From the NCBI GenBank assembly GCA_037379345.1, contig CM074512.1, positions 32,426,001-32,490,000 of the forward strand: a stretch of DNA of 64,000 nt, read 5' to 3'. The notes below the pieces were generated by a model. That model ran no database searches. It was not told where the DNA came from and worked only from the letters and a program-made list of their open reading frames with translations. A program made the position numbers and the translations under genes. This DNA is from Perna viridis (taxonomy: Eukaryota). This document shows, piece by piece, positions 4,578 to 64,000 of this stretch; position 1 is the first letter of the stretch; every line of letters begins with the position of its first letter.

Positions 4578-7500
4578 TCAAAAGTCTTCAATAGAAATAT
4601 TTCTATTATCAAAACGTCTGTATCGCCGACCTTTGTTACACTCAAGACATTTCAGTTCACCATTTCTTTTTCGTTTAAAAATTATGTGACCTAAAAAGAA
4701 AAGGCCAATTTGAAAATCAATGTAAGTCAATATGTGAATGATATATATCTTTTGATATTAAGGAATTTCAGAAAATAAATATTGGTTTGTTTTATGCTGA
4801 AAAATGCAAATGTGTTCAATTGTGTTTTGCTTTGTAAATTTCTGTTTTAATCATGACAATGTCTTCATAAGTTAACATGCTCCATATCATTGTGCGGTCG
4901 TCGGATTTAATGAATGTATAACACATTTTATATAATTACATCACAATTAGTCGGTTTCCAGGAATTGACGAATCATTTATTTTTCTTCTTCAGTGTTTCT
5001 AAATGTTACCACCAAAAAAAATATGGTTTGTCATTTTTTATGTTCATTGACTTGTTTCCGCTAATTTTAATTTTGAATTTAAAATAAACTGCTGTATTTT
5101 GAGATTTAACCTTTATCGAGAAAAAATACTTCTTGAAAGCCGTTGATATACATTAGCAATAACTTACCAAATTTACATTGAAACCAAAGGCCATGTACAG
5201 GAATGAGAGGTTCATATGACGACACGTCACTGATAATGCTTTTATCGTCATATAAAGTGAAGACATGGAGGTCATTTCTTAGAAAGTTTTTAATGAGCAC
5301 TTGCCTACTAATGTCATATGCCTTGCCATCTGTAAGAAATTCATATGGTTTGTGAAACTTTGCTTCAAAAGATATATAACGTTTGCCTAAATGTTTATCG
5401 ACGCCGTCTTTTTTCATCTTAAAGAACAAGTTAAGTTTACTCATTCTGTCCAACTCTGAAGCAATGTCTTCGATTTCTTGACTGCTGAAACATATGCGAT
5501 TCTTCAAAATAAAGCTTTCCAATTTATCAATATCATAATCATCTATAACTCCGCGCGTTGACTGTTTTTTGCCTTCTGAAGCTTCGACAGAAATTCAACC
5601 TGGTTTCTAATTGTGGTTACCTCGAAACTTGAAAATGATGTTTTGTCTTTTTGTATTAAAATTGTTGACAGGAAATCTCCATCTGTTGATTTTAAATCAT
5701 AAAAAATTTCTTTGGTGTTCATTTCACTTGAGTTGTAGGTTATGTTTTAACCCTTTCCAAAGCACACAGCCTTTCTTTGATCAAATTACCATATATATGA
5801 CTTTTGTAAATTGGCTTGTCACAGGACGGACATCTGAGGAGTTCAATTAGTGCAAATTTCTGTTTATCATCAATTTTTTTGTCTAGAACGTTTACATCGA
5901 ACAAATGACCACACTCTTCTAGTTGAATAAAAACTTTGTCACCGAAAGGCTTACCCTTAAATATTTTTAAAAGTCTCTGTTTATCACAAATTACACAAAA
6001 ATTTGGACATACTTCACCACAAATACCAATGCATTGGTGCTTACAAATTAATATTTCACTGCAACGCATATTGCAACGAGGACAATCGCATGGTTCGAAG
6101 CACTTTTTTGTACATTAATAGTGAGAACATTTCCATGTACAATCTTCGATGCACTGAATACAAGGTTCTTCGCATGCCTTCAGACACGAACTATCTTGAC
6201 TGCATGTAGTTTGACATGGCTTTGTGCAAGAGAAACGGGTTGAACATTGAAAGGAACATCCATGGTTACAAACCAACTGCTGTCTACAAATATAATCACA
6301 CTGTGTGTGGAATTTTCCTTGGATGCAGGTCCCACATGGGCATAAGAATAGTTATTTTGTTAGATGAATAACCTTGAAGACGAGGATATTTACAGAGTGA
6401 AGCGATGTACATAGCTTCGTGATTGTTAGAATGACTCTTCATGTCTTGCTCAGGTGATTCCTTCTGCAATTGGTTTATGAAAAACACATTTTTTGAAATA
6501 CCTTTAAAGTCGTTGTATCCCATGACAACTTGATTATTTTGAAGATCGGGATATATTGTCTTGACAATTTCGCCTATCGTAGGTCGCATTCTGTGCTGGG
6601 TGTTCAAACAACAATTTTCTATTTTATTATTAATCATTCTTTCAAACAAAGATACCTCGAGGCCAAATTTTCCTGCAAGCTTATAAACTGTTGGAGACGG
6701 TTTTAATTGCTGATGATCGCCAATCAGAATCAAATGCTCGCATTTGTTACTTAAAGTTGCTACAATATGGGCCTCCAATACTTCAGCGCCTTCTTCAACA
6801 ATAATTACCCTAGGCCCAATGTCTTTCCGAACGTTTTGGTATTTTGCAGCGCAGGTTGTAGTCATTCCCAATACTCCAGCTTGTTTCATCATTTCTTTGT
6901 CTTCTTGTAATTGTACCTCCACATATGCTTAGCAAGCGTCCCTTATTTGATTTTCAAACTTACTTATTTCTCTGTTTATTAATTCGCAATATCTCTTTTT
7001 CCATGCCTTATACAGACGCCATCAATCTTTCGTTGTAAGAAACCAAACATCGCTTATCGCTTCCTCTTCTTCCTGGCTCATTTCGTCAGTGTTGCTCAAT
7101 TCATTCCTGATATTCTTTCTTAATCTTTTTCTTTCATGACCCTGTATTTGCCATCCTCGGACATTTTCAAACTAATCATTACCATTGTTCTCCCCTTCTT
7201 GTGATACGTTAAAGATGACTGTTTTCTTTTCTAGTCCTAATTGCCATAGCATATCATGCACATGATTAGTATCCTTATTTGTATCCTTTTTTGTTAAATC
7301 AATGTCGTCTGACTCGTTTATATCTACATCTGTTTGCCTCGAACTCGTACCTACGTCAACGTCATTTTTAACTTCAACGAAATCACTTGCATTACAGCTT
7401 TCCGTGTCTTCATTTTCTTCTTGGTTATTGTTCGGTCGGTTTTCGTCTTCACAAACATCCTGAATACTGTCTTTCTAGAAAAAAAAACCCAAACTGAAGC

Positions 7501-10500
7501 CATTTACTTATTGCTGAATATCTGCTAGCTTTTCCCAAGCAATGATTGGCAGATAACAATATGTTTGCAAACCCTCTAACAAGACTTTCATAGTGACACC
7601 AACTTATTACTTCCCCGAAGCAATCTTCGTGAATGATTTCTAATTATGCATTTTTCACCCTTTCAGCTAGTTTATTTATGGTAAGCCTCAATGTATCAAA
7701 TCTATCTCTCGAAATTAGTTTTTCTTTATGTATCAATTGTTGCAATGCACGACTGAGAGGAAATTGGCGCCGTCGATTTTTTAGACCGTAATTCTGCATA
7801 AGTTTTGAAGAAATTCGTCCTCTTACACGAAGAAGATTGCCCTTGCAGAAGGAAATAATACCCTCTAAAAACTGATCTAAAGCATGGTTAATATAACAGA
7901 CAACTAATATTGGTCGTCTGTCCATCTTTTCGAAGCTGGGACAAAATTCCAGGAGTGATAGTTATGGATAAGAGCTTTTGCTATTTTCAATCCCACATAT
8001 GTTTTGCCTGTACCAGGCGGGCCTTATATTAATGCGAATTCTTTAGTTAATGCATGTTGCAGCGCCTTAAATTGAGACCTGTTGAGTTTTAAAAGTTCTG
8101 ACTCAGGCCACAACTGCAGATTTAAATGTTTGATATCGTCAGCCTTTTTTGTAATTTCTAGGAATTCAGTTTGCGTTGAATCTAGATTTTCTTCAACCCG
8201 TCGTCCTGGCTCTTTTGTCTCATCCCTAATCACTATAGAATCATCGACTAGAGGTCTTAGATCAAATGCATCTTTAATTGGATTGTTCATTAAATATAAG
8301 GGTGGTGCTATTCCAGACTCACAAGTTACTAAGTATTTTTCAAATGACATTTCTCCTGGTTGAATGCTTGTAAGACTCTGTAAAATGTGTCTGTAAGCTT
8401 CAAAATACGCATTCGTTTCGGCCATAACAGAAGTTAACTCAGGTATCCGCGGCCTCGACAATTCTGATTGCTTTCCAAAACTAAGTACAATTTTTCACCC
8501 TTTTTCGCATCGTCTCGGTTGACGACTGTGGCAAAAGAGAACGTCTAAAAATTGTCAGTTGATATGCATAACAGCGAACCGTAAATAAGTCTTTTGCTTG
8601 GCTTCCATCTGATACTCGAAAATCTATGACAGGAAAACCGAACCACGTAAGAAAGCCCATCATTCTGAAAAGTTGGAGTTATCACCTGAGCATCTGTGTA
8701 TATCCTCAAATCTCTAAATTTTGCCAGTTTTTCGGTACTTTTGATTGCCTGGAGATATTGTTGGACGCCTTCCCAGAGGGGGGCAATGAAGTCTTCCCGT
8801 AGAAGTCGATACTGTACATCAAGATAGTGATCTAAGTCTTGATATATCTTCCACGTTCTATATTCCTTCGCAAAAAAGGCCTTGTGTCCATATTTAAATC
8901 AGCGTCTTCCGGTAAAACAGGTATGGTAGAATAATGTTCTGGTGGCTTTCTTTTATCGTCTCCGTCCTCTTCGTTTGGTACGTTTTTTTGATAGAGTTTC
9001 ACTCAGAGAATTCTCACCGATGGTTTTCCATTTTTTTTTTGGCTCAGACATTACCGTGGGAATGTCGATACTGTATTGGTTTTTCATGTTATCAACCACT
9101 TTTGACACTATTTCTGTGATCGCATTCAAGATGAAAACAGCATCGGGTATAGCTTCTTTCATCGTAAAGCATATGGTCATAATATCAAGAAGTGATTTTT
9201 CAGCAATGAACTCATGTTGATTTGAGCATGCTATAGAATTAAGAAACTTAAATAAAGTACATGTAATGAATCGAAAATTTTACAAACGTTTCCAGAACAC
9301 TGTCTTTGTTTTGACGCTGAGCTGCATTAACACGCCTTAGCAGAACAAGTCAGTATAATACGCGTCATGTCTTCACTGCGTTTTTTTCGTCTAGGAGTTT
9401 TTCTAATGCATTCGGTTTTGAAGTCAAACTGAACAAAACTTCATTTGAATCTTTCTGTTTTAATTCCTGTAGTCTAGTGAATCCATGGCTGACTTTCCAG
9501 TATTTTTCTTCTTCGTTTGATTCACTTCTCCCACCATAGTAATGTCTGTAGGAAAATGTGTATAAAATTAGTAGAAAATCACATTGGCATTTATATAATA
9601 CTTCTGTATTAATAGAGATGTTATTTGTTCTTAACACTAAATTTGGTTGCAAATTATGTTATCTATTAAAGATAGTATTTAGTTTAACTTATTTTTCATG
9701 TCAAAGGGATGCTTATATAATGTCTATATATACATACATCAATCAAGATATATTTTACAAAGCTTAGATAAGAGGTCAAGAACGTTGGGCTTAGGGAGTG
9801 TTGATTGAGATGCCAGAGTAGGTATTTCTCTTGATTAAAGTCTAGATTTTGACAAATCATATACATATGTACATGTAAAATACCGCGTACAATATAGACA
9901 CACTCAATATTTGCAGTCGTTAAGACTTCCGATAGAGAACGTTCACTTCATTTAAAACCAAATTAAATGTTAATCTATAAGCACAGCCAATTAAAAATAA
10001 GAATTGAACTTTAAAAAGATATCTATCAAATATCAAATTTTTATTTACAAGACCCTTTCATAATAACAGCAAGCTGTTATTTTTGGTGTAAAAAGAGTAG
10101 GCACATACCCTTTCTTTTAATTTTGCAGTCACAATACAATGTACTTGTTTTTAAATTATTTGCTAATACCATATAAACGGAAAATTTACGGCTCCACACT
10201 AATCCTATCAAAAGTAACGAATCTGCAAGTATTCTGAATTTTAAATTAAAGTCATGTATAGCTTGAAATAAAGCCTATGCAGTAATATTTCATTCATGTA
10301 ATTAAAACACATGATTTTATTCCTTGGAAAAAGTATTTTGAACAAAAAGTTGTTTTTCAAGTAATAGAATATACGAGTTCTGGTTAATCACAAGTTGGTA
10401 TCAGTTTAATGTAATTATAAAGTGCTCATGATAAAAACCCTAAGACTTTTCTACACTTATAAGAAGCCGGATATCCTCATTTTGAAATGTTTAAAGTATT

Positions 10501-12977: not shown

Positions 12978-13300
12978 AACTGAAAAATTCTAAAGATCTT
13001 TTGGAGACAATCAGTTCAAGACTATTATCTGAATATAATATCATTAAAACCTATGATTTTTCAACACCGTATACTTCTATTCCCCATTCTCATTTGAAAT
13101 CCCGACTTAAAAACATTATACATCGTTGTCTTTCCAAGAAAAGATGACACACATAGATGCAAACATATAGTTCTTGTTTAAGATTCTTCATGCTTTGTAA
13201 GAAATAATTCCAAACCATCTTCCAAATATACAAAGGAAGATGTTTACAAAATGCTGAAATTTTTAATCGACAATATATTTGTCCAGTGTGGTGGACGTGT
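12978..13300 (+). mobile_element. Penelope-like RT fragment, left arm of fold-back
   Basis: Translates LKNSKDLLETISSRLLSEYNIIKTYDFSTPYTSIPH..FLIDNIFVQCGGRV; homologous to the 34624-35150 fragment. Confidence 0.8.
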
Positions 13301-13305
13301 GGAAG

Positions 13306-14660
13306 ACGCGTCTACCACACTGGACAAATATATTGCCAATCAAACATTCCAGCATTTTGAAAGCATCTTCTTCGGTATATTTGGAAGATGATTTGGAATC
13401 GTTTTTTTTTTACAAAGTATGAGGAATCTCTACTAAGAACATGTATTTAGGTGTTGTGTCTTTTGTTTTGTTGAGTAGCAACGATTTATAGTGTTTTCGA
13501 GTCGAGATTTTAACTCAGTTATAGTGAATAGAAGAAAAAAGAGTTAAAGGTTTTAATGCTATTGTATTCAATCTGATAATAATCTTGAACTGAGGGTTTC
13601 CAGAAGATCTTTCAATTTTTTCAGGATCCACATTGAATTAATACCACTTCGGTAATAAAAAATGTGGTAGGACAGGAGACCCTTCTTTGACAGATGTGAG
13701 TATAGAAGTGACAAGTTTTGAAAAAAGTTTGTACATTTTGCAGATCCAGCTATGTAGCGTTGTTCTGCAGACAAAAACAATGCTTCTTTGGGCTTTGTCT
13801 GGTGGTACGACAACATATTTGCCATGTACAGAAGACAATGGTTTTCCTACATCGGGATCTTTACAAACTGATGTAGCATTGACACTAAATGACCTACTTA
13901 AAGCTTTCAAACGCTTCAAATTAATGACCTCACAGCCTTTACCAATTTGACAATGAATCAATGTCTTCATGTACTCGTTTTTGTTTTTTTGTTTTTTTTC
14001 TTGTATAGTCCATCCATAAAAATGTTTAAGTTATAATTCCAATTATTCGTGATTCACAGTACATTGAACCTTTGGAAAGGACGTTACGGAGAGATTCGTT
14101 TTCTATGATGTTTAAATCTCTGATAATGACGTGATCGGAAAGACCATTATTGAATGGAGAGTTTTTCAACAGTCATGTGGTTCAGCCATGAAGTCTTCAA
14201 TCTCGAGGTCCTGCTATAGCCTTTTAGAATTGAAAATGTTTGATGCAATAGGTGAAGTAAAGTCCAGAATATGCAATAATCGGTATTGATTTGTCTTTGA
14301 AATAGTAGGAATTTTGTTCATAACGTTTTTGTAATGAACTAATTGTATCTATACCTTTGTTGGCAAATGGTAGTGGAGCAACTGATCGTTTGTTTTTCAT
14401 ATTGACCTTTAACACAAACTGGATTAAAGAGTCTGTGGAAACCAATATCCAAAATGATGGCAACAAGTCTGTATAATGATGAGGTAGGTTCAGAAACAGG
14501 AGTGTCAAGTTTGTTTTGTAAAGGGGTGCAGTAAAGTGAAAGGTATATAATAGAGTTTAGTTCGCATGTGATGAAGTCCAAGAGGTTTTTGTATGAAGAA
14601 GACGATCTACAGGTATGGAAATATCATGCATCTTAGGTGATGTATAGTGGCGATGGCTAT
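13306..14660 (-). mobile_element. Penelope-like element fragment; 13306-~13625 is the right arm of the fold-back
   Basis: Minus-strand peptides PFANKGIDTI, KYVVVPPDKAQRSIVFVC, GINSMWILKKLKDLLETLSSRLLS with frameshifts. Distal boundary approximate. Confidence 0.75.
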
Positions 14661-15004
14661 GAACCCTTATCCGTCTTGGATTTTTGACAAATTAATTCAT
14701 CACATTTGCGTTTTTGTTATATAGGCTTGTAAAGTTTTCTATACTTTTGATGTTGTCAATCAAAATGTTACAAAAATGATACATGTACATATAAATGGAT
14801 ATAACATGTACAGATATTTTTTGACCACCACCGAAACAAAAAATATCTCCAGCGCCGAATCCCAAAGGGATTAAGGACGAAAGTAAAAAGGACGGCATTA
14901 ACTGCAATGTGACGTTCTCATAATGTAAATATTGTATGTATTTCCAATCCTTTTTTGTTATGTAATATATATTTTTAGACGTTCAAGGGTTCGTTTAAAA
15001 TTTT

Positions 15005-15820
15005 AAAACAAGAGCCTCTCGAAGAGCCTGAATCTCTCACATTGCAAACAACTGCCATATTAACTAAGCAAGTAAATATCATGCTTTTTTACCATGTTTG
15101 ACAAAAATTGTTGAAAAAGATTGCTGTAAGTTCGAAAGAGTACCTAAGACACTGTAAAATGTTGGAAAAGTTTACAAAGTGTATTTTTTTAACTTTGGGC
15201 AGGGGTTCCCTATGCCATGTCATTCCACCGGGTCTAAAGGGGCATTAGCCCAGTATACATTTGCTAAAAAAGAACACAGAATGAAGTTAAACCATGGCTA
15301 TCCAACATTTTCATCATCACCATTCAAATCAAGAGACCATGTTTACAATATAAACCAAATATCGTTGAAATCAAAGCAAGTATAAAAATTTAAAAAAACC
15401 AAAATCATTGGAATCTAAACAACTGGTAAAATGGTCGCAAAATGGCAGCCATTTTGATTATGGCCGCCTAAAAAAATACATGTAGTTTCAATATTGCCAG
15501 TCATCTCAGAATATCATGTTTATCTTATGAGTAGCTTTCATTTTCATTATTCTTCTATAGTGGAGGAAATAATAGCAAAACAAAAACAAAACATTTTGAC
15601 CTCTATGTTCTATTTTAAGTAACGACGGCCGTGTTTTTGACCGATGAAACATTTTAAATGATCTGTCATTTTGTACAGGATCCTCTAAGGAACAATCATA
15701 TTAAGCTTCATTTCAGAGGAGAAGATGTTTGAAGAATTATTAACGACGACAACGACAGACTACGACGACGAACGCCCAGTGATAACAAAAGTTCATATGG
15801 CCAACGGCGAGGTGAGCTAA
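15005..15820 (+). mobile_element. Non-autonomous Helentron/HINE-like element
   Basis: Starts AAAACAAGAG..GAATCTCTCAC and ends with a (GAC)n tract then ..GGTGAGCTAA; same end architecture as the inverted element at 33171-33715. Family name is inference. Confidence 0.55.
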
Positions 15821-25511: not shown

Positions 25512-25549
<38 letters not shown>

Positions 25550-42422: not shown

Positions 42423-45400
42423 CAAAGCAATGAAGAAGAGGATGACAGTTACGTGCCTAGAGGAAGAGGTAAATCAACCAGAGGAGGTAGAGGGTATAGA
42501 GGAAGGGGTGGTTCTGTACGAAATGATGAGAGGTAATTTACACAGAGAACAAAGATTAAGTTGACAGAGTAGGTTTGTAAGAGCGGCTTCTTAAATATAT
42601 TTTGTATACACAGTAATATTATTTAGAAATACTATCTGTCAAAAATTGTTCATGACTGGTTTCTATTCACCATGGTGCCATATTTTAAACGCGAGTTTGC
42701 GTATACTTTTTTTTATCATATTTCAACGTGTTTAAGAGTAATCAAGGGAACCAAGGTTATAGCGGTAATCAAAAGAATGTAATCCAGGGACAAAGACCAG
42801 ACATGGAAAACAGACATACACAACAAAGAACACAAAGTAACTAATATCATACATACAAAGTAACAAAAGTAAATGAGCAACTCGGACTCCACTAAAAACT
42901 GGGAGCATGGACCAGGTGCACCGGTAGGGTAAGCGTCCTCTGCTTTTCTAGAAACACCCGCCGAGTTGCTCATAAAAAGTCAAGTCCGGGGTAGACAAAC
43001 GAGGAAAGGTAAACTATGACCCGTTGAATAAATCAGTTTTCATGGTGCTGATGGATGCATCATAACGGTCCACGAGTTTCGATATGTCTTTTTTAGCACT
43101 TTAAAGGAAAATCATGATAATCATTATGCCTCTTCTTATTTTAGGACTAAACATTGGAGAAAGGTCTTTGGATTTACGAGGTTGACTGAGTACCAAAATG
43201 GGGAAGCAAGCGACTTAGTGCTGAAGTTTGTAAGCGAACAACAACTATTGAAGGAAGTACTTCAATGTGACGACCACAGTGATGAAATGGTAGAGCTTTT
43301 ATTGAAATGCTTATCAAAAGCCTGTTGTTATAGTATCTTAAAACAGCATGTGCAACAAATTCTTATTATACTCCAAGCCTCAACATTTTTTAAAATGACT
43401 ATACTACAATTAATTCTAAAAATTACAAAGCTGCCAGTTTCTGAATTAGACAAATATGAAGCATCATTAATCAGCATAATAAATTTAATCAAAGAAATGA
43501 AATCAAAAATGCCGAATACTATGTTTGAAGTTATTGGTATAACAACAGTTCTGGAAAAAGTTGTGTCTCGTGTATCAGCATGCAGCACTTTACAATCCGC
43601 GGAGATTGTTGCGGCTTTTAAACGTTTGGAACTATCGAACGAAGAAGAAATGCAAGAAATGTCATATGAAAAAGATCATTCCCATAAGCGTACATTTAGA
43701 CCTGATGAGGAGGATCAAGAACCACCAGAAAATTTCCATGAGATTCCAGTGTTCCCAGAGGAGCATGATATTTTGGTTAATATGAACCCTTTCCTCCGTA
43801 TGAACAAACGTTGTGGAGGTTACCAGGACCTTAATCATTACTTAGATGTACAGTTTCGACTGCTACGGGAGGATTTCATAGGCCCACTTAGAGATGGAAT
43901 TCAACAGTACATTGCGTTGTTAAAAGGAACAAACAATGGCGATAAAAAAAGTAAAATGCCAAAAGACATACGAGTATACACGGATGTCCAAGTCATAAGT
44001 TCGGTCTGCAATAGCAGTGGCTTGTGTCGCAGAATTTCTTTTTCTTGCCCAGGATTCAAGCGCATTCATTGGGAATCTAGCAAAAGATTGCTTTTTGGAT
44101 CACTTGTCTGTCTATCTAATGACGATTTTGACACATTATATTTCGCAACTGTCGGGAACAGGGACTTTAAAAATTTGCGAAAGGGTTTAGTAGACATAAA
44201 ATTCGAAGATGACTCAAATACGATGGCGTGTCTTCCAGAAAATGCTATTTTCAAAATGGCGGAGTCTAGTGCATTCTTTGAGGCATATCGTCACGTTTTG
44301 TCTGGTTTGAAGACATTGCTGAATGGAGATCTTCCTTTCGAAAAATATATAGTACACTCTAAAGCCAACGTGGATGAACCGGCTTACATACGTCGAAATC
44401 CGCATGCTATGTTTGATCTCAGACCTTTAGTTGATGATGACGTTGTATTAGTAGAGAAGACAAAAGAAAACATAAGATCACGTTGGAATGGATATAACTT
44501 CTCACCAGAATCAGCTCAAGCGCGAAATGTTCCTGTTATGAATTATGACCAGTGGCCTTCCGCAGATGCACTTCATCTGAACGAATCTCAGTATAGTGCT
44601 GTCCAAATGGCACTCTCTAAAGAGTTTGCAATTATACAAGGCCCCCCAGGAACGGGTAAGACATACATTGGTAAGAAGATAGTCAAGGCGCTCTTACACA
44701 ACAAGGATATTTGGTCTCCTAATGTAGATGAAAATAAACTCCTTCTTGTTGTTTGCTACACCAATCATGCCCTTGATCAGTTCTTAGAAGGAATTGATGA
44801 GTTCTACAAAGGAGGTATACTGAGACTAGGAAGTCGAAGTTCAAGTGACGTGATGAAAAGGCATAACATCAATACAAAGAGATTAGAATTGCGCAGGAAC
44901 CGGAGAGCACCAACAGCGCTGCATCGTGAGAGAGTGAAAGCTAGGGTTAAAAGGAATACACTAAAAATACAGATTAATGCAATAGCAGATAAAATAGAAA
45001 AAGCCAAAAGAGATGTACTGCATGAGGATACACTACAACCCTTCATCGGAACGCAACTTAGGTTTCAACTGACACGTGGCTGCAATTTACTTATTAATGA
45101 GATGAAGGCTCATGGAATTTATCCAAGTCGTGGATTTGAAATGTGTGCAATTTTAGAGTGGCTAGGGTATGGAAACTTGACTTGTGGTAAACAAACGCTT
45201 CATTTACCCACGACGAACTATGATCCCGAAGAAGATGATGATGATGATTATAATGATGATGAATACATCGATGCAGAAGATGAAGTAGACCGAGAAATGT
45301 TAAACAGAATTCCAGATATATATGACGAAAGGAACGAAGAAATTGACAAAAATGCAGCAGTTCTCGAAATTTCAAAGTTGTTTGCAGCTTTGGGCTTATC

Positions 45401-48400
45401 AAATGACAGGGTAGCATTAGATGTCTCTAGTATTGGATCAAAACGTTCATACACCTCTGGTGAATGGCAAATGGATGCAAAACAAAGAAAAAGGTTGAAA
45501 AAAACAATACGTTACGAACTAGCGTCTTCTGATAGAATGTCAATGCGAGATGTGTACAGAATTCAGAACATTTGGACATTAAAACAGAAAGATAGATGGC
45601 GACTTTACAGATTTTGGATTTTTCTTTACTGTCAGACGCTCCAAGAACAGATTCGCGACGCAGAAAAGGTATTTCAAGATGCATGTGACTTAGTAAACGA
45701 AATTCAATTACATGAAGACAAAGAAATCATGAAACGTTCAACTGTCATTGGAATGACCACAACTTGTGCGGCACGGTACCAGTCAGTTTTAAAAGAGATA
45801 GGACCTAAAATAGTCATTGTCGAAGAGGCTGCTGAAGTTTTAGAGGCACACGTTTTAACTACACTTAGTAAATATTGTGAGCATCTGATATTGATCGGTG
45901 ACCATCAACAGCTGAAACCAAGTCCAACGGTGTACAAGCTAGCTAAGAACTACAACCTTGACTTGTCACTCTTTGAAAGATTAATTAACAACAAGATGGA
46001 CTTCCGTTGCTTAGCTTTGCAACATAGAATGAGACCAGAGATTTCAACAATCATGAAAATTATCTACCCAAAGCTACAAGACCATAATTCTGTAAAGAAG
46101 TACCCGTCTATAAAGGGTGTTTCTACCAATGTGTTTTTAATAGACCACAGTGAACAGGAAACTTCAGATGAAGACATCGTCAGCCATTCGAATACTCACG
46201 AGGCGGAGTTTATTGTAGCTTTATGTAAATATCTATTACTCCAAGGATACAAATGCCACCAGATCACTGTTTTAACACTGTACTCGGCTCAGTTGCGCGA
46301 ATTAAAAAACCGCATGCCAAAAAAATATTTTGACGGGTTACGGCTCACAGTTGTTGACAATTATCAGGGCGAGGAAAATGACATAGTCTTACTCTCATTA
46401 GTAAGAAGTAATACAAACAGAATTTCTGGTTTTGTCAGCATTGAGAATCGTATATGTGTTGCGTTTTCTAGAGCAAAATTGGGACTATTTATTATCGGAA
46501 ATTTCCGCATGTTAGAAAGAGCGAAAGACAGAAAAAGTGATTTATGGAAAAAAATTGTGTCTTTAGCAGAGGACAAAAATATGATCGGTCCAAATCTCTT
46601 ACTTAAATGTCAAAACCACCCAATGGACGAGGGAATTGGTGCGAGTTCTGCAGCGGACTTTCGAAAAGCGCCAGAAGGAGGATGTATGAAACCTTGCGAG
46701 GCCCTGTTGAATTGTGGCCATGCCTGTACTAAAGCTTGCCATGTATATGACAAAAACATAAGGAATATACATGTATGAAACCCTGCGAAAGGCAGGTTTG
46801 TGGAATTAAAGGCCATAAATGCACTCGCACTTGTGGAAAGAAATGTGAACAATGTATGATTAAAATTCCAAAAGTTATTCCGGGCTGTTATCATGAACAG
46901 GATGTACCATGTTCCCAGGATCCATCGACATGGAAATGCATGGCTCAATGTAGACGTATACTGTCATGTGGTCATCCTTGTCAGAGCAAGTGTAGTGAAC
47001 CACACACAATACAGTGCCAGTTTGATGTCAAGAAAACTGCCCCGTGTGGTCATTTCATTAAAGTTAGATGTTTTGAAACCTTTACAGCAATATGCTCTAA
47101 ATCTTGTGATGCATTTTTAGATTGTGGACATCCCTGCACTGGAACATGTGGTGAGTGTTTCAGTGGTAAACTGCACAGACCGTGTAGACAAAAATGCAAA
47201 AGAACGCTTGTTTGTGAGCACGAATGTTCAGACAACTGTTCAAACTGCCCTCCCTGTTCAAGAATTTGCCAAAATAGATGTATTCACAGCGTCTGTCAAA
47301 AATACTGTGGAGAAATATGCATCTTATGCATTGAACAATGTGAATGGCGCTGTAAGCACTTTGTCTGTAATAAGCTTTGCTATGAACCTTGTGAACGACC
47401 TCGTTGTAATAATCCCTGCCTGAAACAGCTTCCATGTGGGCACGACTGCATTGGTTTATGCGGGGAAATGTGTCCTCGCGTCTGCCGTGTCTGCGACAAG
47501 GAAAAGGTTAAAGAGATACTTTTCGGAACAGAAGATGATGATGATGCCCGATTTGTCCAATTGGAAGACTGTAAACATTTCTTTGAAGTTGGTGGACTAG
47601 ATCAATGGATGGATCAACCAGTTGAAAGTGATGAAAGAAAAGTTTCAATCAAGCTTAAAGAATGTCCGCTCTGTAAAACTCCAATCAGAAGAAACTTAAG
47701 GTATGGCAATATGATAAAGAGTACTTTGAGAGATATTGAGAAGGTAAAAAAACAAATCCAAGGCGGTAGGCAAAATATAACTGCAATACGGCTTTCGATC
47801 GAGAGAGATATCCAGAGATTTGGAACAGAAGATCAGAAGGCAATTTCTGAAATATATTCAAGAAAGAGACAGAATGGTTTGTCTTCAGTCCAATCCTATG
47901 AAACAGTGAAGAATCAGTTACTGTTTCTGCAGAAGCTACAAGATCTCAAAAGACAACTAAAACACAGACATTTAGAAATTACGCCATGCAGAATGTTTCA
48001 AATGACTAACCAGGCAGTTTCAAATCTAAGGTACTTCATCGTCCAGGAACGGAACTATTTCACCGACCAGGAAATAGCCGATATTATGGAAGAAATCGAT
48101 AGGTTGACATTTCTGTTGCAGTATTGTGAGCTGGAAAAGTATATAGAACGTACGACGTTTAAGTTTGTCAAACACAAAGCTGCAACATATGATATGACAA
48201 AGGATTGGCTAACTAAGGACAGACGACTTTCAGAAACAGAAAAGACATGTATTAAACAATTTCTAAAAAGTATGAAACATTTGATAAAAAAAGATGGATT
48301 AGGAATAACAGACAAAGAAAGGGAAGAGATTGTTCGTGCCATGGAGCTGTCAAAAGAACATTGGTTCAAATGCCCCAGTGGTGAGTTGTATTAGGATTAA

Positions 48401-50202
48401 TTGAAAACGTATATATATTAATTTCACTGTTATTTTTTCCATTTTTTAAACGAACAGTAAAACGCATAAAAAGTATCCACAAAAGTCGAATTATAAATTA
48501 AAAACATATTTATCAAACAAAACAAGTTTACGAATATGATAAATAAATTTCGTGTTATACAATTAACAAATTATTTTCACTTCGAGAAAAATAGTAGTTC
48601 AAAAGAAAACTGTTGTCGACGCAATCGGTATAGTTTCGCTTTTTACCCTTTAACCCCAAAGACGCTCTTTCATGGAAACCTGATTGCATTTCTGTTTCTC
48701 GATTGGCCAAATACTGATAACTTGGGGGCGTTCGAAAAAACTGTATCGAGAAATAAAATTGCGTGCCATGTGTTATTTCCTGAATAAAATATAGAAACTT
48801 ATAAGTAAAAAAATCAAATCAGATTTTAATTAGTGCTTCGTTTTTACAAAAGCTATAAAGTCTAATAGAAATTCGTCGCGTTAAGGTGCTGCGAATAAAC
48901 GTTGCTCGCATATCTAGTACTTTTTCCCTGCGTAGACAATATAATATAAATGACATGTAGCTAAGAGTGTGATAAAGCATTTTTTATCCCGAGAAAATCG
49001 TTGACAATCCGAGGCGTAGCCGAGGGTGGCAATGTTTTTTTCAAGGAGTAACAAACTATCACTCTCTAAGCTATATGTTATTTATTTTATTATACTGAAT
49101 GTTCAGTTGTAATGCTTTTTCAAAGTAAGCCCTAAAAATCAGTTTTGTATATTTGGCTTTTGTCATTATTTTCTTCATTAAAATTGTTTTATTTTCTTTT
49201 CAAGTTTGCAGTCATATGAAATTATGAACGTTAATTGTGGATCGCACTCCTTTTTTTGTGACCTCAATGTATCGTTGATGGACTTTTTCCTGCTTACAAA
49301 CAGAAATGTCATTAAGATTTTTTTGTTGTTTTTTCTGTTTTCAAGTTTGCCAGTTCACACCTCAATCACTTTTTAATTTGACAATACACTAAGAAATGTT
49401 TGGGTACAGATTCGTAGTTGATTTGGCATCATGAGTAGAAAGATATATTTATAAGTCTGTTAATCGATGTTGTGTAAGTTATAATGGTCGTTTCGCATAT
49501 TGATTCCTTCAAACGCAGGAACTGCTACCTAATTTTTACAGCAACCGCTTTGACTGCCCAAATGTAATAGACAAAAACCAAAAACAAAAAACAAAAACGT
49601 GTGTTAGAGCAGATTATTAAGCTCGTATTGAACCAATCAAAATTCATCAAATTGACATGAAGTATAATAATATGTACTATTATTCTAACGCGATTTCCAC
49701 GTGATTTTCATTTGAACTGAGCAAATAAAATATATGGCAGTGCTCATGTGAATCGGGTGAAGGTACATTCACACGAATTTCACGTTAACAATATTTTGCA
49801 TGTTTAATACCTTCTTCATTTTCTTTTGTTTTGGGATTCAATTACCTCTTCAGCTTAAAGGTATGAATGCTTACATGTATTTCAGCCAATGCAAAGTAAC
49901 TGTGCTAAATATTGTGAGTTTTGCCCCAAAATATTAAACGATATTTCACTATTCACTGCGGCTTCCAATATTTTTCCCAATTATATAATTGTTTTCTTCT
50001 AGGACACGTATATGCTATAGGAGAGTGTGGAGGAGCAACGGTAGAAAGCAGATGCCCAGAATGCAATGCGACGATCGGTGGGGCAAGCCACAGATTGAGA
50101 GAAGACAATGCGCTTGCTTCAGAGATGGACGGAGCAACTCATGCAGCTTGGTCGGAACAAGCCTACATGGAAAACTATGACCCATTTGAAATTAGATTTT
50201 GA
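37633..50202 (+). CDS. ZNFX1: ZNFX1-like copy 3; join(37633-37646,40295-40366,40825-40929,42419-42532,43145-48380,50003-50202); one 1-nt frameshift at 46752-46756; 1913 aa if repaired
   Basis: The 1198-aa and 539-aa ORFs are consecutive halves of one ZNFX1. All 5' junctions are phase 2 with GT-AG; the last junction AGT G|gtgagt..tctag|GA CAC is phase 1 and gives WFKCPSGHVYAIGECGGATVESRCPEC. Total with one added nt is 5742 = 1914 codons. Could be a very young pseudogene. Confidence 0.85.
38971..39142. mobile_element. Small MITE-like element
   Basis: Imperfect terminal inverted repeats CAGGGGCGGATCC / GAATCCGCGCCTG. No clear target-site duplication. Confidence 0.5.
40295..40366 (+). CDS. ZNFX1: Copy 3 micro-exon A (72 nt, phase 2-2, Arg/Gly-rich)
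   Basis: tttcag|T GGA AGA..AGC AG|gtaaat; GRDKGPTRERDRRRGRERGNHES. Confidence 0.75.
40825..40929 (+). CDS. ZNFX1: Copy 3 micro-exon B (105 nt, phase 2-2, RGG)
   Basis: caacag|A AAC..CAG AG|gtatta; NQRGIEVDDNGTPKGRKHTYRGRRGGRGMFRNGQ. Splice sites are weak. Confidence 0.7.
42361..42416. repeat. (AT)28 microsatellite abutting a splice acceptor
   Basis: 56 nt of perfect AT repeat followed directly by AG (42417-42418). Confidence 0.97.
42419..42532 (+). CDS. ZNFX1: Copy 3 micro-exon C (114 nt, phase 2-2, acidic plus RGG)
   Basis: atatag|T GAT..GAG AG|gtaatt; DQSNEEEDDSYVPRGRGKSTRGGRGYRGRGGSVRNDE. Confidence 0.78.
42734..43078 (-). mobile_element. Penelope-like element 3' terminus, antisense in a copy 3 intron
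   Basis: Aligns with 1482-1807 and is highly similar to the reverse complement of 52699-52926; ends ~65 bp before the acceptor of the large exon. Confidence 0.85.
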
Positions 50203-52926: not shown

Positions 52927-53129
52927 ACAGACTTTCATCGAGAAATAGTCTGGTAAAGAAAATAATACGTAACGGTTGTAAGTTATAGAAGTTCTGAAGA
53001 ATGTTTTATGTTTTTGTACAGATTCTAAAATTCATATTCTTACTTTGTTGTTTAATCAATTTAGAATGAAGATCAGAATTTATATAGCAGTTACCAGAGC
53101 CTTTAAATATAATATGTAAAGCCTGTTAG

Positions 53130-54329: not shown

Positions 54330-54665
54330 CTGACAAATAGTGTGTCTTTTTCGATCGTCAACGACCTGATTAACAAATAGTGTGTCCTTTCCGATTCTCA
54401 ACACGACCTGACTGACCAGTTTCGTCTCCTTTTCGAATGTGAACATGACCTGACCGACCGGTTTCGTCTCTTTTTCGGTTGTGAACAAGACTTGACTGAC
54501 CGGTTTCGTCTCCTTTTCGGATGTGAACATGACCTGACCGACCGGTTTCGTCTCTTTTTCGGTTGTGAACAAGACTTGACTGACCGGTTTCGTCTCCTTT
54601 TCGGATGTGAACATGACCTGACTGACCGGTTTCGTCTCTTTTTCGGTTGTGAACATGACCCGACT
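54330..54665. repeat. 42-bp minisatellite, ~6 good plus 2 degenerate units
   Basis: Unit ACTGACCGGTTTCGTCTCCTTTTCGGATGTGAACATGACCTG; gives the 14-aa periodicity of ORF 54267-54656. Confidence 0.95.
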
Positions 54666-57374: not shown

Positions 57375-60300
57375 CTAAAATCTTATTTGAAAAGGGTCAT
57401 AATTTCCCATATTTGCTAGTTCGGACCATGCTGGGTGAGAAGCACCATCCATTTCTGGAGCAAAACGATTATCGTCTCTGAGTCTGTGCCCAGACCCGCC
57501 AATTGTAGATCCACATTCAGGACATCTGCTCTCAACAGTCGCACCTCCACAATCTGCTATCGCATAAATATGTCCTGAAAATGGTAGCAAACAATCGCTA
57601 TCAAATCTGGATGAAATGTTCAAGGATTGACTATATTTGCAAACGGATTTAAAAATGTTTGAAAATTTCTACGTATACGTTTCTAGTCACATGTCATCAA
57701 TTTCATTCCATTTTAATATTTTTTTAGTTAAAAGCCAAAAATTTACCAACTAAATGTCTTTTCTTCTCATATTACGAGTATTGATTCCCACTAAAATAAT
57801 GAAAAATAGTATTGGGTCGTAGGTAATTATAACTCATTATTCTGCATTCACATAAACGAATCAAGTGAGTTTTTTTTCGTACAACACATAACCCGTTTCC
57901 GGTCTAAGCATTTAAACTGACAGCAGCAGTGCGTATTTATATCTGAAATGGGAGACAATGATATCAACTGCAGTTTTGGGCAGTACAACTGCTTAATCCC
58001 TACTTCAATATAAAGATGCATCTCGTATTTAAAGACACTTTCGAAATTTTATGCAGAACATGGCTGGTAATAGTTCCGCTCAATTAAAAAAAATCTAGAT
58101 TAAAGCCTAAACTGTGAAGCGTCATAGCCATGCAACAACAAAAAAGCTATATATTCGCACAAAAATAATGTACCTTATCGGATCATTTCATTGGCAGCAG
58201 TATTTCCCAATTGTAAATGGCCCATTCCCCCGATACGAGATTTACATTCAGGACAAATTCCGTGTTGATTAGCCTGGCCACAATTACCAATGGCATATAT
58301 GTGGCCTAAAAAAACAAATAGTTTTCCGTTTTCTTTCTTTTAACAAATACACTGATCAATAAACATCCAAGATATATTTAATTTGTTTTCAGTTAAAACT
58401 AGAACACTGTTTTTAAAATTTACCTTGATTTAGTCTAATCAGTAGGGATATTGCATAATACTTGGTAATATGTGTACTTAATTTACCAACAAAACCTTTT
58501 TTTTTTGCAATTCATACACGCATAACACGAACACTTTAGTACAGAATGAAACCACAATGGGTATTAAAGTTCTGTCAAATTCCGTAAACACTTAAATTCA
58601 TTACATTTTCTTTTGGCAGGAATTTTGGCAACATGTTTCGACAACTTATATATTCCAACCAAGAAATTCTATCATATCGGGCCAACTTTTGACAAATTAT
58701 CTAAATGTTGGAACATGTCGTTGAAAAAAACAACCGAAACATCGTAATTTAATAAGAAATTAACGAAAGTTGCATAGAAACAATACTTTGAGAATCCATT
58801 TTGCCAAATGAATGTTGCCACAGCTCGTAAGCCCTGTATGTCCGGATTTAGTCATCTTTTTAACACCAAAATATACGTCTTTTAGTAAGCTAAGGTAGTA
58901 CTAAACGGATAAGTCAATTCTGAAAATTTGGTCCCATTTTGTTGAAATAAAGCTTTTTAGAGGCAGTCCGCACAGAAATTTAAAGTGTTTTGTCATGAAA
59001 CAGTACATATTTTTCTAATCCATGGTGTGTGCATGTTCAAGTAATTTATAAGTAATTTAATTATTATTGTTATAAAAGCCAACAGCCATGGTAACATACT
59101 GAAAAAAATACACATATTACTGTGTTTTAGTACAAATCAGGGGTGCCTTTCCAAAACTAAACAGCCAAATATTATGTTTATAAAACATCAGGAACTTTAT
59201 AGACACTAGCACAGAGTGAAAGCATACATTGAGGAGGTGGAAAAAGGGTAAAAATAGTAATACCCTTTTCGATTCATGAACTCAGAGTTTTAATTCCAAA
59301 AGTTCATGCGCGATAAGATAATTTGAAAATCAGCCAGCTGATGCTGAGGAGAGAACCTAAAAGAGCAGAAGACTGAAACGTTCCGGCTACCATTCTTCAT
59401 TTAAACTACACCTGTTTACCATTACACATATTGCTTCGGTCTATGTATAAATGCTACATTTACATAAAAACTACATTTAAACAATATATCCACCAAATTT
59501 CAACTTGTACAATTTTGAGTTTTACAAAATTTGACCGGGTCAACTTGCTGTGCGAACAGTGTGTCTAAATGTAACTGTATAGTGCACCCTAAAACTAACA
59601 ATAAATAACATGACCAGAAACTAGTTTTAACGAATATAACGGATCGTTTATGCTCTTTAACATACAAAGAATATTCAATATGGATAGCTATACCCTCTTA
59701 AACTGTGACCTTTCATGCTTGAGCTCGTGTACTTACAAAACAAAGGGGAATATACTTGTGCTACAATTGGTTTTAAGATTTCAATGTCATTTGTACATGC
59801 TTAATAGTATCATTGGTTTAAGTTTACGCCCCGTTTTTTTTTTTTTTTTGAGATTTTGACTTATTTGAACCTTCAACTACTGACGCTCCGGTATTTTTTG
59901 CCGATATTCCGCAACTCAAATGGGGGCAGTATCATAAGAATATCAGATTTTTTTTTCATAGAAATTAGTGTTATGATAGCATGAGAGAACTTAATAGTGA
60001 CTTACCTTGAGGACATTTAAACCAATGACCTTGCCCAAGTCCTATTGCTGACACTATGGCTTTTCTCTCTTTGTCTGTGATTCCTAACCCAGACAAAGGT
60101 AAAACTTCCTTTAGCTTTTCAAATGTCATGTTCACAAACCCATTTCTTTCCATCTTGTACGGACCTTTGGTAAGATATTGTTCGACTGTCATGAAATCGA
60201 GGCCCAAGTCTCTTGGTAAAGTTGTGTCTAAGGTTCGTTTTCTCTCTTTGAATTTCAGGAATTTTCGTAGTTTTTGCAGACGTTCCAACTCAACGTTTAT

Positions 60301-63300
60301 GTCATTTATCTCCTGAGTAGTGAAGTATCGCCTTATCTGAAGGGTAAAAGAAAGACAGTCGTCTAGACTCCCAAGTGCTTTGTTGTACATATCCATGTAA
60401 GAAGCCGATGCTTTATCTTTCTCGAAATCTCGTTTTAGATCTTCGACTTGCCTTACAATGATAATTTGATTCTGAATTGCCGAAAGGGTATTCTCATCAT
60501 AAGGTCCTTTGGTCAGACAATCATAGAATTCTTTTATTTTCCTAGCATATTTTACATGCAAGTGTGGCATTTCTCTTGAAATTGATCTTTCCAGGTCCCT
60601 TTTTATAGGGTCATTTCCGAGCATGCGTTTTTTAACAGCTTCTATGTCTTGTAAAGCCCGTTTAATCATGTTTCCATAACGCAGATTACGTCGAATCGCA
60701 GTTTTACACCGTGGGCATTCTTTCAGTTTTACAGCCGTATCACTACCTTCATTTGTAACATTGTCCATCCAATGATCGAGATCTGAGTATTCGAAAACAT
60801 GACCACAATCTTCGAGCTGAACATATCTTGCTTTGTCTTCATCTTCACTACCTAGAAAGACTTCTGTTACGATATCATTGTGGCATACTTTGCAAAGGGT
60901 CGGACAAGGTTCCCCACAAAGACCAATACATTGGTGACCACACTGAAGCGTCTTCCTGCAGGGTTTGTTGCATCGAGGTCTCTCACAAGGTTCGCTGCAT
61001 ATTTTCTCACATCTGTGATGCCGACATTGCCACTCGCATAACTCTGCACAAGGTACGCATAAGTCGCCACATTTCTTTCCACAGAAGCTGTGTTTACAAC
61101 GGTTTTCGCATTTACGCGTACATGGTGGGCAATTTGAGCAACGATCTCCACATGGATGTTCACACACTAACGGTCGCTTGCATAATTGAGTGCATGGCTT
61201 GTGAAGCCTTTTCTGGAAACAATCGCCACACGTTCCTCCGCAGACATCTCCACATTCCAGCACCACATTGCATTTAACTGTGCACCTTGTTGAAATTTTC
61301 TCATAACAATTAATGTTAGCAGTATGTCCACAATCCCAAGTCATTTGAATTTTAACAGTGCAAGACTCCGTATGTCCTTCTCCGCACAAATTTTTGCAAG
61401 GGTGACCACAAGGTAAACGTTCTGGGCATTTTGATGTACATCTCCAGTGAGTGGGATCAACATAGCATGGCACATATTGCTTATGTCCACATTGTGGTAA
61501 AAACTTTTCCACCATTTCATGACATTTTCCACATTCTTGATTACACCTTCTTTTACATCTGTGTTCCTTTTGACAAATAGTTTTTGTACATGGCTTATTG
61601 CATTCGTACTCTTCGTGGTCTCGATCGTAGGTATGACAAGCTCTGGCACAGGTATGGCCACATGGTAAACGGAATTCACAAGCTTTCATGCAGCCACCTT
61701 CTGGAGCTTTCTTAAAGTCTGAAGGTTCTGCGGCCATAATCATATCGTCTTTCGGATGATTTTGGCAGTAGAGCGGTAGCGCTTCGCCTAGAAACTGTTG
61801 ACGCCTTGCATGGTCGGCAATACCACACCACAATTTGCTTTTATCAGACAATAGGGAGAAGTTTCCGATGACAAAAAGACCCATTTTAGCTCGTGACAAT
61901 GCAACGCAGACTCTGTTATCAATGCTTAAAAATCCAATTTTTCCGTCATCGTTGCTACGCACCAGTGACAATATAATGATATCGTTTTCTTCACCTTGAA
62001 AGTTGTCAACAACAGTCACTCGAACGCCCTCGAAAAAAGTTTTGGGCATTTTTCGTCTAAGTGCAAACAGCTGTCCTGAGTACAAAGTGAGTACTGTAAT
62101 TCTTTCTCGGTCGTATCCTTGCAATATTAGGTATCTACACAGGCCAACGACGTACTCTGCTTCATGTTCATTTGAGTGACTTTTTAAGTCCTCATCATCA
62201 GATTCGAGATTTTTATGATCAATAAAAAACACATTATTGGCAACACCTTTGACATTTTCATAGTGTTTGACAACATCATCATCTCTTAGTTCGGGATATA
62301 TTCGCCTCATCATTCTTGATATATCAGGTCTCATTCTGTGCTGAAACTGCAGACAATCGTATTCAAGCTTGTTGCATATCATTCTCTCAAAAAGAGATAA
62401 TTCCAAATTAAACTTTGTGGCTAGCTTGTATACCGTGGGATTCGGTTTTAATTGTTGGTGATCCCCTATCAAAATAAGATGCTCGCATCGCCTGCTTAGT
62501 GTAGTAACGATGTGAGCTTCCAAAACCTCTGCCGCTTCTTCGACAACAATGATGCGGGGTCCAATTTCTTGGAGAACTGACTGGTATCTTGCGGCACATG
62601 TCGTTGTCAAACCAATTACAGTCGAATGACGCATAATTTCTCGGTCTTCTTGCATCAAAACCTCATTGTATTGTCTACACGCAACTTCAAATTGGTCTTC
62701 TTTCCCACGTATCTTATCCTGAAGATTTTCGCAATATGCGTTTACCCAGTAACGATACAAACGCCACTTGTTCTTTTGTGACAATGTCCACATATCAAAG
62801 TTTCTAGAAACTTCTGGTCCCGTCATTCGGTCATGAGACAAAAGCTCCCTCCTTATTGTTTTCTTCATTCTTTTCTTTTGATCTTTAGTCATTTGCCACT
62901 GGCCCGCAGTGGTCGGTTTCTTGTCCTCTGCATCTAAGTTTGATACATCAAGGGCGACTAAAAGCCGTTGGGCGCCTAAATCGACCTGTTGTAACTGCTC
63001 TTGAAGGTCAGCTACGAGTGGGTCATCATCTTCCTCTATATCCAGGTCTTCAATGTCCAACTGTCTCATATTCATTTCTGCATCGAGTTCGTCTATCACA
63101 TTAATGAACTCGTCCATCAGTTCATCTTGTTCCTCTTCATTGTTGTTACCTTGGTTTTGTACGTTGTCGTGTCGAGCATTTACATTCTCCTGGTTTTCGT
63201 TTTGACCGACTGGTTCATCTTGCTCACCAACAAGCAGCATCTCACCATATCCAAGCCATTCCAATAGCGCCGAATGATGTTTCTTCTTATTCCACTCAAA

Positions 63301-64000
63301 TCCATAATTCATCATTTCTCTAACTCGGTATTCAAAACCAGATATCAATCGTGAGTAAAATTTTCCCATAACTACTTCTAAGCTGTCTTCGTGCAGAATT
63401 TCTCGTTTTGCCATTTCAATTCGTCCAGATATTTTGTTAATCTCATCTTGAAATGCTTTCATTTCATGTTTTGTGCGCATTCGTGCAAGATGTACTTCTC
63501 GTGGAACCTCCCGTCTCCTCCTCATTGCCATTCTCATGTTATTGATGTTTAATTGCTTCATTACCTCACTCGAGGAACGACTTCCCAACCGAAGTATGTC
63601 TCCTTTGAAAAATCTTAAAATTCCTTCTAGAAATTGATCAAGTGCGTGATTTGTATAGCAGACGACAAGTAAAGGTCGGTTGTCTTCAGCACCGAGGGCT
63701 GGGTCAGTATTCCACAAAGATCTATTATGGAGAAGTGCCTTAACGACCTTCAAACCAATGTACGTTTTTCCAGTCCCAGGTGGGCCTTGTATGATAGCAA
63801 ACTCCCTGGAAAGAGCGTTCTGAACAGCTCTATATTGCGACATATCTAAATGAAAAAGATCGGCTACTGGCCAGGTCTTTAAGTCGTCGACTTTAACTCG
63901 TCGAGCCCCAATTGACTTCGGGCTAAAGTTGTACGTCGTATCTCTTGCATCTTCTTCTCGGTTTCCAGGTATATTTTTGCGTCCTCGTAAGATTATCTCC
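57375..64000 (-). CDS. ZNFX1: ZNFX1-like copy 4, 5'-partial; join(>64000-60006, 57574-57375)
   Basis: Frame is open from the window edge (EIILRGRK..LFHLDMSQY) through the 1290-aa ORF. Donor CAA G|gtaagt at 60006/60005; acceptor tttcag|GA CAT at 57574 gives GHIYAIADCGGATVESRCPECGSTIGGSGH..PFQIRF*. Confidence 0.93.
58175..58305 (-). CDS. ZNFX1: Alternative RZ-finger exon of copy 4
   Basis: tatttgtttttttag|GC CAC ATA TAT GCC..CGA TAA. In phase with the 60006 donor it gives GHIYAIGNCGQANQHGICPECKSRIGGMGHLQLGNTAANEMIR*, with all RZ Cys/His retained and no lesions. Confidence 0.85.

Follow-up and report, generated by a model that had tools for sequence, protein, structure and literature searches.

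A stretch of 64,000 nucleotides from the mussel Perna viridis (assembly GCA_037379345.1, contig CM074512.1, positions 32,426,001 to 32,490,000; hereafter the window) carries four genes of the ZNFX1 family, which we call copies A to D. We suggest, with a probability of roughly 60%, that this is an old mussel cluster in which copy D splices in a tail-less RZ finger that likely weakens the second ubiquitin-transfer route of the enzyme. Six-frame translation, tblastn and Pfam (ZNFX1, AAA_11, AAA_12 and ZnF_RZ) placed the four genes in the orientation - + + -; the four diverged paralogues described in an earlier reading made from the sequence alone (the sequence-only reading) were thereby recovered. 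In each copy a very long exon precedes a short last one, and a shared phase-1 intron separates the two just 3′ of the first RZ cysteine. That the window holds an old, stable mussel-family cluster of three retained genes and one dead copy is very probable.

Copy D ends in either of two RZ exons

Contigs of six sequencing runs were placed on copies C and D; that the runs are RNA is a guess, and the spliced joints themselves show processing. All four of the RNA-like runs joined position 60005 to 57573, skipping a cassette exon, and three of them (X4, X6 and X8) also joined 60005 to 58304 and 58173 to 57573 with GT..AG ends, the shorter side of the cassette joints measuring 26–35 letters. Judged by the depth of junction contigs, which is a poor measure and not a splice ratio, inclusion of the cassette would be about 28–45%. 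Its stop codon lies 1 nt 5′ of its donor, so that inclusion yields a tail-less isoform 23 residues shorter, and the two isoforms differ solely in their final 42 (short) or 65 (long) residues. Two ab initio Mytilus models show a protein with two RZ fingers in tandem, an arrangement excluded here by a stop codon that lies ahead of the donor used.

RefSeq isoform X2 terminates in this exon in Mytilus edulis, M. galloprovincialis, M. trossulus and M. californianus. In the gene models available for M. coruscus and M. edulis it stands before the canonical one, so that the cassette is conserved in five Mytilus species. A query with its 42 residues recovered two more clusters at 88% identity (just two candidates, a weak sampling of the range). 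Where the rest of the protein was present, the cassette was seen solely on D orthologues. Together, these results make it almost certain that the copy D cassette is a real, conserved exon. The duplicated terminal exon that the sequence-only reading had reported in D thus exists, as a second RZ exon at 58174–58305, but it is spliced and conserved and no product of decay.

It is very improbable that the cassette is a regulatory, poison-like exon whose inclusion lowers full-length D, the short protein being inconsequential. The stop codon does stand ahead of the last exon, and the cassette is not in every run, but with the stop 1 nt before the final junction the transcript should escape decay, as the 50-nt rule holds for stops so near the final junction. 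The amino-acid sequence, including every zinc ligand, is also kept, at 88% in distant records.

The alternative RZ finger and its predicted effect

According to two preprints on human ZNFX1, RNA binding activates the ligase, K63 chains made by the Z-RING trap RNA and K48 chains made by the RZ finger drive turnover (bioRxiv 10.1101/2025.10.14.682297, 10.1101/2025.09.05.674436). The human RZ finger is there given zinc ligands C1849, H1853, C1869 and C1872, nucleophile C1860 and base H1881, with I1835 holding ubiquitin (bioRxiv 10.1101/2025.10.14.682297). Mutation H1881N is reported to abolish the RZ route, and C1860A to stabilise the protein and to halve the delay of virus growth (bioRxiv 10.1101/2025.09.05.674436). 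The 2025 human work treats RZ as a possible switch between K48 turnover and K63 trapping, shown with engineered mutants only, and the C-terminal 500 residues are not resolved by cryo-EM. We checked the human residue numbering on an ape protein (P0106).

Copies B and C carry the ZNFX1 (1B) and UPF1-like superfamily 1 (SF1) helicase (AAA_11, AAA_12) domains above the Pfam cut-off; in copy D, AAA_11 and AAA_12 lie inside the window and PF25396 just beyond its edge, and copy A holds domain remnants. The Walker A (GPPGTGKT) and Walker B (VEEAAE) motifs do not differ among B, C and D, whereas the Walker B position of A reads EEGA against the deviant EEAA. An acidic segment in B, C and D aligns by sequence with the acidic plug helix of insert 1C (human 828-836), and that of D matches M. 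edulis across 22 residues. All Z-RING/Miz zinc ligands (equivalents of C1591, H1593, C1619 and C1622) are present in B, C and D, and the equivalent of the E2-contact residue F1575 is Phe in B and C and Leu in all D orthologues. The position of the Q1623 linchpin is Lys in all three copies. RNA-stimulated ATPase and ubiquitin ligase activities and antiviral induction are further traits of the ZNFX1 family.

The canonical last exons of B, C and D keep every RZ residue named above, from the four zinc ligands, the nucleophile C1860 and the base H1881 to the helix residue I1835. Among 120 listed matches, 76 canonical fingers had full spacing (44 were dropped for want of a last exon, for other spacing or for a pattern miss); the nucleophile cysteine is present in 75 of these, the histidine in 73 and an MDG tail in 72, and the last zinc cysteine is followed by EM after 19 residues in all 73 measurable fingers. 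The alternative exon also matches the RZ family (PF20173, 50.8 bits) and keeps the four zinc ligands and the nucleophile cysteine in 18 of 18 records, although these are not independent and represent about three lineages besides this genome. Its distance to EM is 18 residues, and the histidine position holds H in 14, N in 3 and R in 1 of the 18. In this genome, H stands at +9 from the last zinc cysteine, but as H-L (canonical H-x-L), with 18 residues to EM. Spliced records end 2–4 residues past EM and the conserved MDGA..AWS tail is absent.

AlphaFold models of a fragment of the alternative form (P0205) and of a canonical copy B fragment (P0153) had a mean predicted local distance difference test score (pLDDT) of 84.6 and 83.1, respectively, and both form four RZ strands in the same register. 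Beyond these strands, bridging falls on L345 in the alternative model and on R650-I651 in the canonical one, where the tail is a short helix. The models fit a histidine that would have moved by one position in the alternative finger.

We suggest that, when the cassette is skipped, copy D would be an enzyme with both ubiquitin routes and that, when it is included, the protein would still bind RNA, E2 and ubiquitin but transfer ubiquitin poorly through RZ. The short form would then persist longer and favour K63 trapping, with the balance between the two outputs depending on the splice ratio. Because H1881N abolishes the human RZ route, and because the alternative finger has lost one residue next to the histidine and in 4 of 18 records carries N or R in its place, we read the alternative finger as one that may weaken the RZ route (the K48, turnover branch), a claim with about an even chance of being right. 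Loss of RZ catalysis recurs in this genome: the last exon predicted for 6 of the 11 copies has no nucleophile. Doubtful, in our view, is the stronger claim that D switches between a complete RZ and a tail-less, histidine-shifted finger, which would make a stable K63 RNA trap out of a self-destructing K48/K63 enzyme, and that most dispersed paralogues fixed the same change by losing the RZ nucleophile.

Several observations weigh against a weakened finger. In this genome, as in every Mytilus record, the spacing between the last zinc cysteine and the histidine is unchanged, and the histidine is probably ancestral, so that this finger may well work. Nor is a tail required in every case, because a divergent copy at C1:65M ends in a tail-less RZ with all six residues, and the available text of the ZNFX1 papers assigns the tail no function (bioRxiv 10.1101/2025.10.14.682297, 10.1101/2025.09.05.674436). 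The models give secondary structure only and no distances, and the alternative model represents record P0205, which is an R variant. In run X12 the cassette did not appear, where, as elsewhere, contigs show presence and not absence. Last, human C1860A is reported to restrict virus less than the wild type, so that a weakened RZ would be no simple gain (bioRxiv 10.1101/2025.09.05.674436).

Some of these points favour a rival explanation, that the alternative finger has full RZ activity and chooses another substrate or partner (for example, RNA versus lysine acceptors), loss of the tail changing specificity or localisation. The zinc ligands and nucleophile kept in all 18 records, the histidine in 14 of them and the RZ strands still formed by the model, at moderate confidence, are consistent with it. 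So is a bivalve-like locus whose canonical exon has a related loop (GGMNHRL) and the ANQ and SRIGGM residues of the alternative exon; as the locus is unrelated, the alternative exon would keep ancestral catalytic-loop residues. The rival has to accommodate a one-residue deletion in a segment of fixed length (73 of 73), as well as N and R at the histidine position, where N kills the human RZ route, and we regard it as possible but rather unlikely.

A PDB sequence search with the last exon returned weak RNF213 rows alone (E 0.63), Foldseek with the alternative-isoform model nothing at E<=0.001, and a metagenome scan for DNA around a D orthologue two distant loci, 47–48% identical.

Copy D offers a natural protein pair, kept by several mussel lineages, that bears on the roles of the histidine register and the conserved tail, and the ratio of its two forms would be a simple marker for mussel antiviral responses. 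As a gene-family expansion, the cluster is old and ordinary.

Age, orthology and selection

Each of copies B, C and D has a Mytilus counterpart of its own, at 68, 60 and 73% identity, respectively, against 45–54% with the Mytilus orthologues of the other two; the best matches of B are Mytilus proteins at 66–67% identity. In an IQ-TREE phylogeny of 23 chosen rows (LG+G4, no mixture model), 18 rows formed a mytilid-only clade (support 100/100) with four starred groups, ((E, C), (D, B)), in which group E comprises copy A, an intact copy at C2:36.16M and one M. edulis protein. FastTree, with 64 rows (nine of our own models, copy A and 54 of the 120 listed matches), gave a concordant topology. Copy A and the copy at C2:69M have long branches, which make their placement less sure. 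Paralogues cluster by orthologue rather than by species, and no young, species-grouped paralogues were met in these trees.

The order of accessions, on one scaffold in each case, is B, C, D in M. coruscus (CAC5363614, 618, 621/622), in M. galloprovincialis (VDI32196, 191/192, 189/190) and in M. trossulus (XP_063429945, 947/948, 950). Counting against a conserved order, this synteny is one of accessions and not of coordinates, and one M. edulis assembly is ordered differently. Synonymous sites were saturated in all six paralogue pairs tested, including A versus the copy at 36M (proportion of synonymous differences, pS, 0.81–0.85), and the best DNA self-matches between the genes reach just 64–69%; on these two grounds we rejected recent duplication or gene conversion among the copies. 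Within the species, across contigs, the ratio of non-synonymous to synonymous polymorphism (pN/pS) was 0.25 for C (19 sites, p=0.003) and 0.40 for D (17 sites, p=0.07), a variation that leans to purifying selection.

The sequence-only reading had contrasted near-constant helicase motifs with strongly divergent other regions. The contrast itself stands, since Walker A and B are identical and the ARM region, the 1C insert and the pre-RZ helices reach only 20–41% identity among B, C and D, but the profile is generic: oyster versus scallop gives the same one (27, 38 and 30% for ARM, 1C and helical regions), as does oyster versus ape. Domain-wise divergence was therefore rejected as a mark of diversification, because unrelated species pairs show an equal profile.

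An exception to this profile is the helical bundle of copy C (window 47700-48300, between Z-RING and RZ), which is 28–31% identical between orthologues, versus 47–59% for B and D, and 84% identical within Mytilus. This bundle is a candidate for positive selection. B is present twice in two Mytilus species; one second copy, M. californianus XP_052107137 (P0003), is 87% identical to the first, carries Tyr in place of the RZ histidine and differs in its tail. The E lineage turned up in a single Mytilus species (at 90% clustering).

These data support a lineage-specific ZNFX1 expansion with some births and deaths, as in the birth-and-death multigene family of Nei's model. Its traits are present: copy A and a copy at C10:21.21M are broken, and C2:69M, C2:36M and the Mytilus B duplicates stand beside long-kept members. 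To this extent the birth-and-death cluster proposed by the sequence-only reading is borne out, through the broken A and C10 copies, the C2:69M offshoot and the Mytilus B duplicates, but its four copies are not successive stages of ongoing turnover, because B, C and D are 1:1 with Mytilus, synonymous sites are saturated, C is intact elsewhere and the D exon is conserved. The paralogue phylogeny that it suggested likewise gave a mytilid-only expansion (100/100) but grouped paralogues by orthologue, three of them 1:1 with Mytilus.

A fast-turning antiviral locus, with copies at successive birth-and-death stages under diversifying selection, is accordingly improbable. In its favour, copy A seems to have died recently (about 0.04 substitutions per site, range about 0.02–0.08); the E lineage is found in one Mytilus species alone and B has been duplicated again in some Mytilus; the copy C helical bundle diverges fast; and the window haplotype of C may be a genuine null allele, since it carries 11 private substitutions, of which one replaces an invariant glycine. 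Against these stand three of four copies that are 1:1 across the sampled mytilids, saturated synonymous sites, pN/pS below 1, a copy C that is whole elsewhere and the generic domain profile. The diversifying locus of the sequence-only reading is thus not supported, in view of 1:1 orthology with Mytilus in an apparently kept order, saturation and pN/pS <1. Nor did tblastn bear out the surmise that the cluster may continue past 64000: the main exon of D runs on, for 1.36 kb, and no other copy was found in the 79 kb downstream.

The dead copy A and the copy C frameshift

Copy A is the heavily decayed member noticed at the outset. Frameshift-aware alignment counted 18 lesions against B and 19 against D, with 8–9 in-frame stops and 10 frameshifts, and an internal deletion of about 230–280 codons, depending on the reference, near 6343, which removes the end of the helicase and the first zinc fingers. 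In a simple simulation, the stop load (8–9 in 1400 codons) fits about 0.04 neutral substitutions per site, with a range of about 0.02–0.08. Because the stop count fits only so few substitutions, the death of copy A apparently was recent and came long after its origin. An intact sister lies at C2:36.16M, 3.7 Mb distant. The predicted last exon of A is RZ-like, with the zinc ligands H and CxxC kept and without the catalytic cysteine and tail; that of the C2:36M copy likewise lacks the RZ nucleophile and tail, and the M. edulis E protein has Ser at the nucleophile position.

Copy C, reported earlier as a copy with a single lesion, does carry one frameshift in the window assembly, where an A5 run at 46752-46756 (+) is one base short, but this is no fixed stage of decay. 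Three of four runs hold a frame-restoring extra base (A in X3, C in X6 and X7), and the contigs of the fourth, X12, break exactly there. A contig of run X6 contains the whole copy C main exon in frame, spliced to the last exon, and a fixed pseudogene was rejected because C is whole and spliced in other samples. An A/C variant within a homopolymer is a likely place for a run-length error. The window haplotype also differs from all four runs at 11 further sites (private substitutions), one of which alters a glycine invariant in 67 aligned proteins. Its private changes are 7 non-synonymous to 4 synonymous, versus 3 to 6 among segregating ones (Fisher p=0.37), and none of 20 listed samples shares more than 0.92 of words with the window. 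An assembly artefact and a rare null allele are about equally likely; whichever holds, copy C is a working gene model in the species.

Layout of the cluster

Features of the window are collected in Table 1. Copy B, the intact copy of the sequence-only reading, encodes a protein of 1837 residues with no lesion; its main exon specifies the ARM region, the SF1 helicase with inserts 1B and 1C, the NFX1 zinc fingers, the Z-RING, the helical bundle and the first RZ cysteine. The main exon of copy D reaches about 1.36 kb past the window, to about G000:C2:32491359, and the long isoform has 1855 residues counted from that exon onward. By tblastn, no further ZNFX1 copy was found in the 50 kb upstream or the 79 kb downstream of the window.

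Upstream of copy C, an RNA-like contig extends 433 nt 5′ of the main exon, and Mytilus C proteins have an RG-rich N-terminal extension. An (AT)28 microsatellite at 42361-42418 lies immediately 5′ of the predicted acceptor of one upstream exon, replacing the pyrimidine tract. First exons of A, B and D were sought in vain. An open reading frame at 25278-25670 was rejected as the first exon of B because its sequence matches repeats elsewhere.

Table 1. Exons and extents of the four ZNFX1 copies (window positions).
Feature	Position	Strand	Description and evidence
Copy A	9545-4578	-	pseudogene
Copy A last exon (predicted)	4578..4690	-	AG acceptor in the shared phase; open frame to stop at 4578
Copy A main exon	5168..9545	-	frameshift-aware alignment; junction and stop codons; tree sister of G000:C2:36.16M
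Copy B	26453-32350	+	intact
Copy B main exon	26453..31764	+	1789-codon open frame; Pfam; 68% identity to Mytilus orthologue
Copy B last exon	32148..32350	+	canonical RZ finger and tail; splice sites, translation, PF20173
Copy C	43145-50202	+	main and last exon
Copy C candidate upstream RGG-rich exons (predicted)	40295-40366, 40825-40929, 42419-42532	+	AG/GT ends, RG-rich frames
Copy C main exon	43145..48380	+	run X6 contig 43028-48379, frame restored, joined to 50002
Copy C last exon	50003..50202	+	canonical RZ finger and tail; spliced in X6 and X12; PF20173
Copy D	beyond 64000 to 57375	-	main exon crosses window edge
Copy D last exon	57375..57574	-	canonical RZ finger and tail; joint 60005>57573 in 4/4 runs
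Copy D cassette exon, 132 nt	58174..58305	-	alternative RZ finger; joints 60005>58304 and 58173>57573, GT..AG
Copy D main exon	60006..64000	-	spanned end to end by single contigs in 4/4 runs; 73% identity to Mytilus orthologue

Dispersed repeats at 12980-15340, 34660-35140, 42700-43080 and 52700-52970 recur in neighbouring contig stretches, and tandem arrays occupy 51342-51536, 52431-52625 and 54385-54665. Downstream of the cluster lie a long terminal repeat (LTR) retrotransposon with open gag and pol frames and a TspO/MBR-like gene (L005:2736-8113; L003:9126-9989).

Other ZNFX1 copies in the genome

At least 11 ZNFX1-domain matches are present in the genome: the four in the window, two more on the same contig and five on three other contigs. 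A complete RZ was found in four of the 11 (B, C, D and C1:65M, the last tail-less). In six, the predicted last exon has zinc ligands and no nucleophile at the canonical place, and PF20173 gave no match at those loci; last exons of the dispersed copies were predicted by a pattern scan, which did not find one for the C10:17M copy. Copies A, 36M and 69M are without the E2-contact Phe in the alignment, and Walker A and B persist in them.

The copy at C2:69.2M (L011:1021-6279) branched off from B and evolves fast (branch 0.87); its helicase motifs are intact, and it apparently has neither the E2-contact Phe nor the RZ nucleophile. That at G000:C1:65.08M (L015:217-6780, 8065-8238) is a deeply divergent ZNFX1 with about 450 extra N-terminal residues, which have no Pfam match; its RZ finger is complete and tail-less and ends at about the same place as the D alternative exon. 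A second ZNFX1 clade, at C3:38.6M, C10:17.0M, 21.21M and 21.28M (L013, L014, L016, L017), has longer zinc-finger regions; the last exons found there have no canonical RZ nucleophile, and the C10:21.21M copy is broken into several frames.

Comparison with known systems

The literature searched, which did not extend to Blasi 2022 or the preprint supplements, held no description of a mussel ZNFX1 cluster or of an alternative RZ exon. Several ZNFX1 genes per genome are known from other molluscs, such as the three reported for Aplysia (PMC9334734), whereas the present cluster is a mytilid-only clade. Induction of bivalve ZNFX1 by DNA viruses has been reported (PMC12585102; oyster data bioRxiv 10.64898/2026.05.15.723513).

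With its alternative RZ finger, D represents a variant form of a known enzyme, one that has stood unnoticed in RefSeq. The same two C-termini appear there, by automatic annotation, as Mytilus isoforms X1 and X2 (XP_071160029/30, XP_076097015/16, XP_052104786/87 and XP_063429950), labelled just ‘NFX1-type zinc finger-containing protein 1-like isoform X2’, and the RZ swap is absent from the names.

Human ZNFX1 has the same domain order, and B, C and long D share with it Walker A, EEAA, the Y1043 equivalent, the Z-RING C/H/C/C, I1835 and the six RZ residues. It differs in being one gene against four old mussel paralogue lineages and in the positions F1575 (Leu in mussel D) and Q1623 (Lys in B, C and D). 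Mussel D, moreover, can swap its RZ exon, and the available text of the human papers mentions no such isoform.

The RZ finger of RNF213, as described in PMC11549300, has the C-H-C-C zinc site, Cys nucleophile and His base of the canonical mussel exons, at the same spacing; RNF213 has, however, an AAA+ ring and not a helicase, and the mussel alternative finger is one residue shorter after the His position. Caenorhabditis elegans ZNFX-1 is described as a natural ZNFX1 that works without RZ catalysis (bioRxiv 10.1101/2025.10.14.682297), resembling copy A (before its death), C2:36M and C2:69M, all of which are predicted to be RZ-less. The worm lost RZ outright, whereas mussel D keeps both options in one gene.

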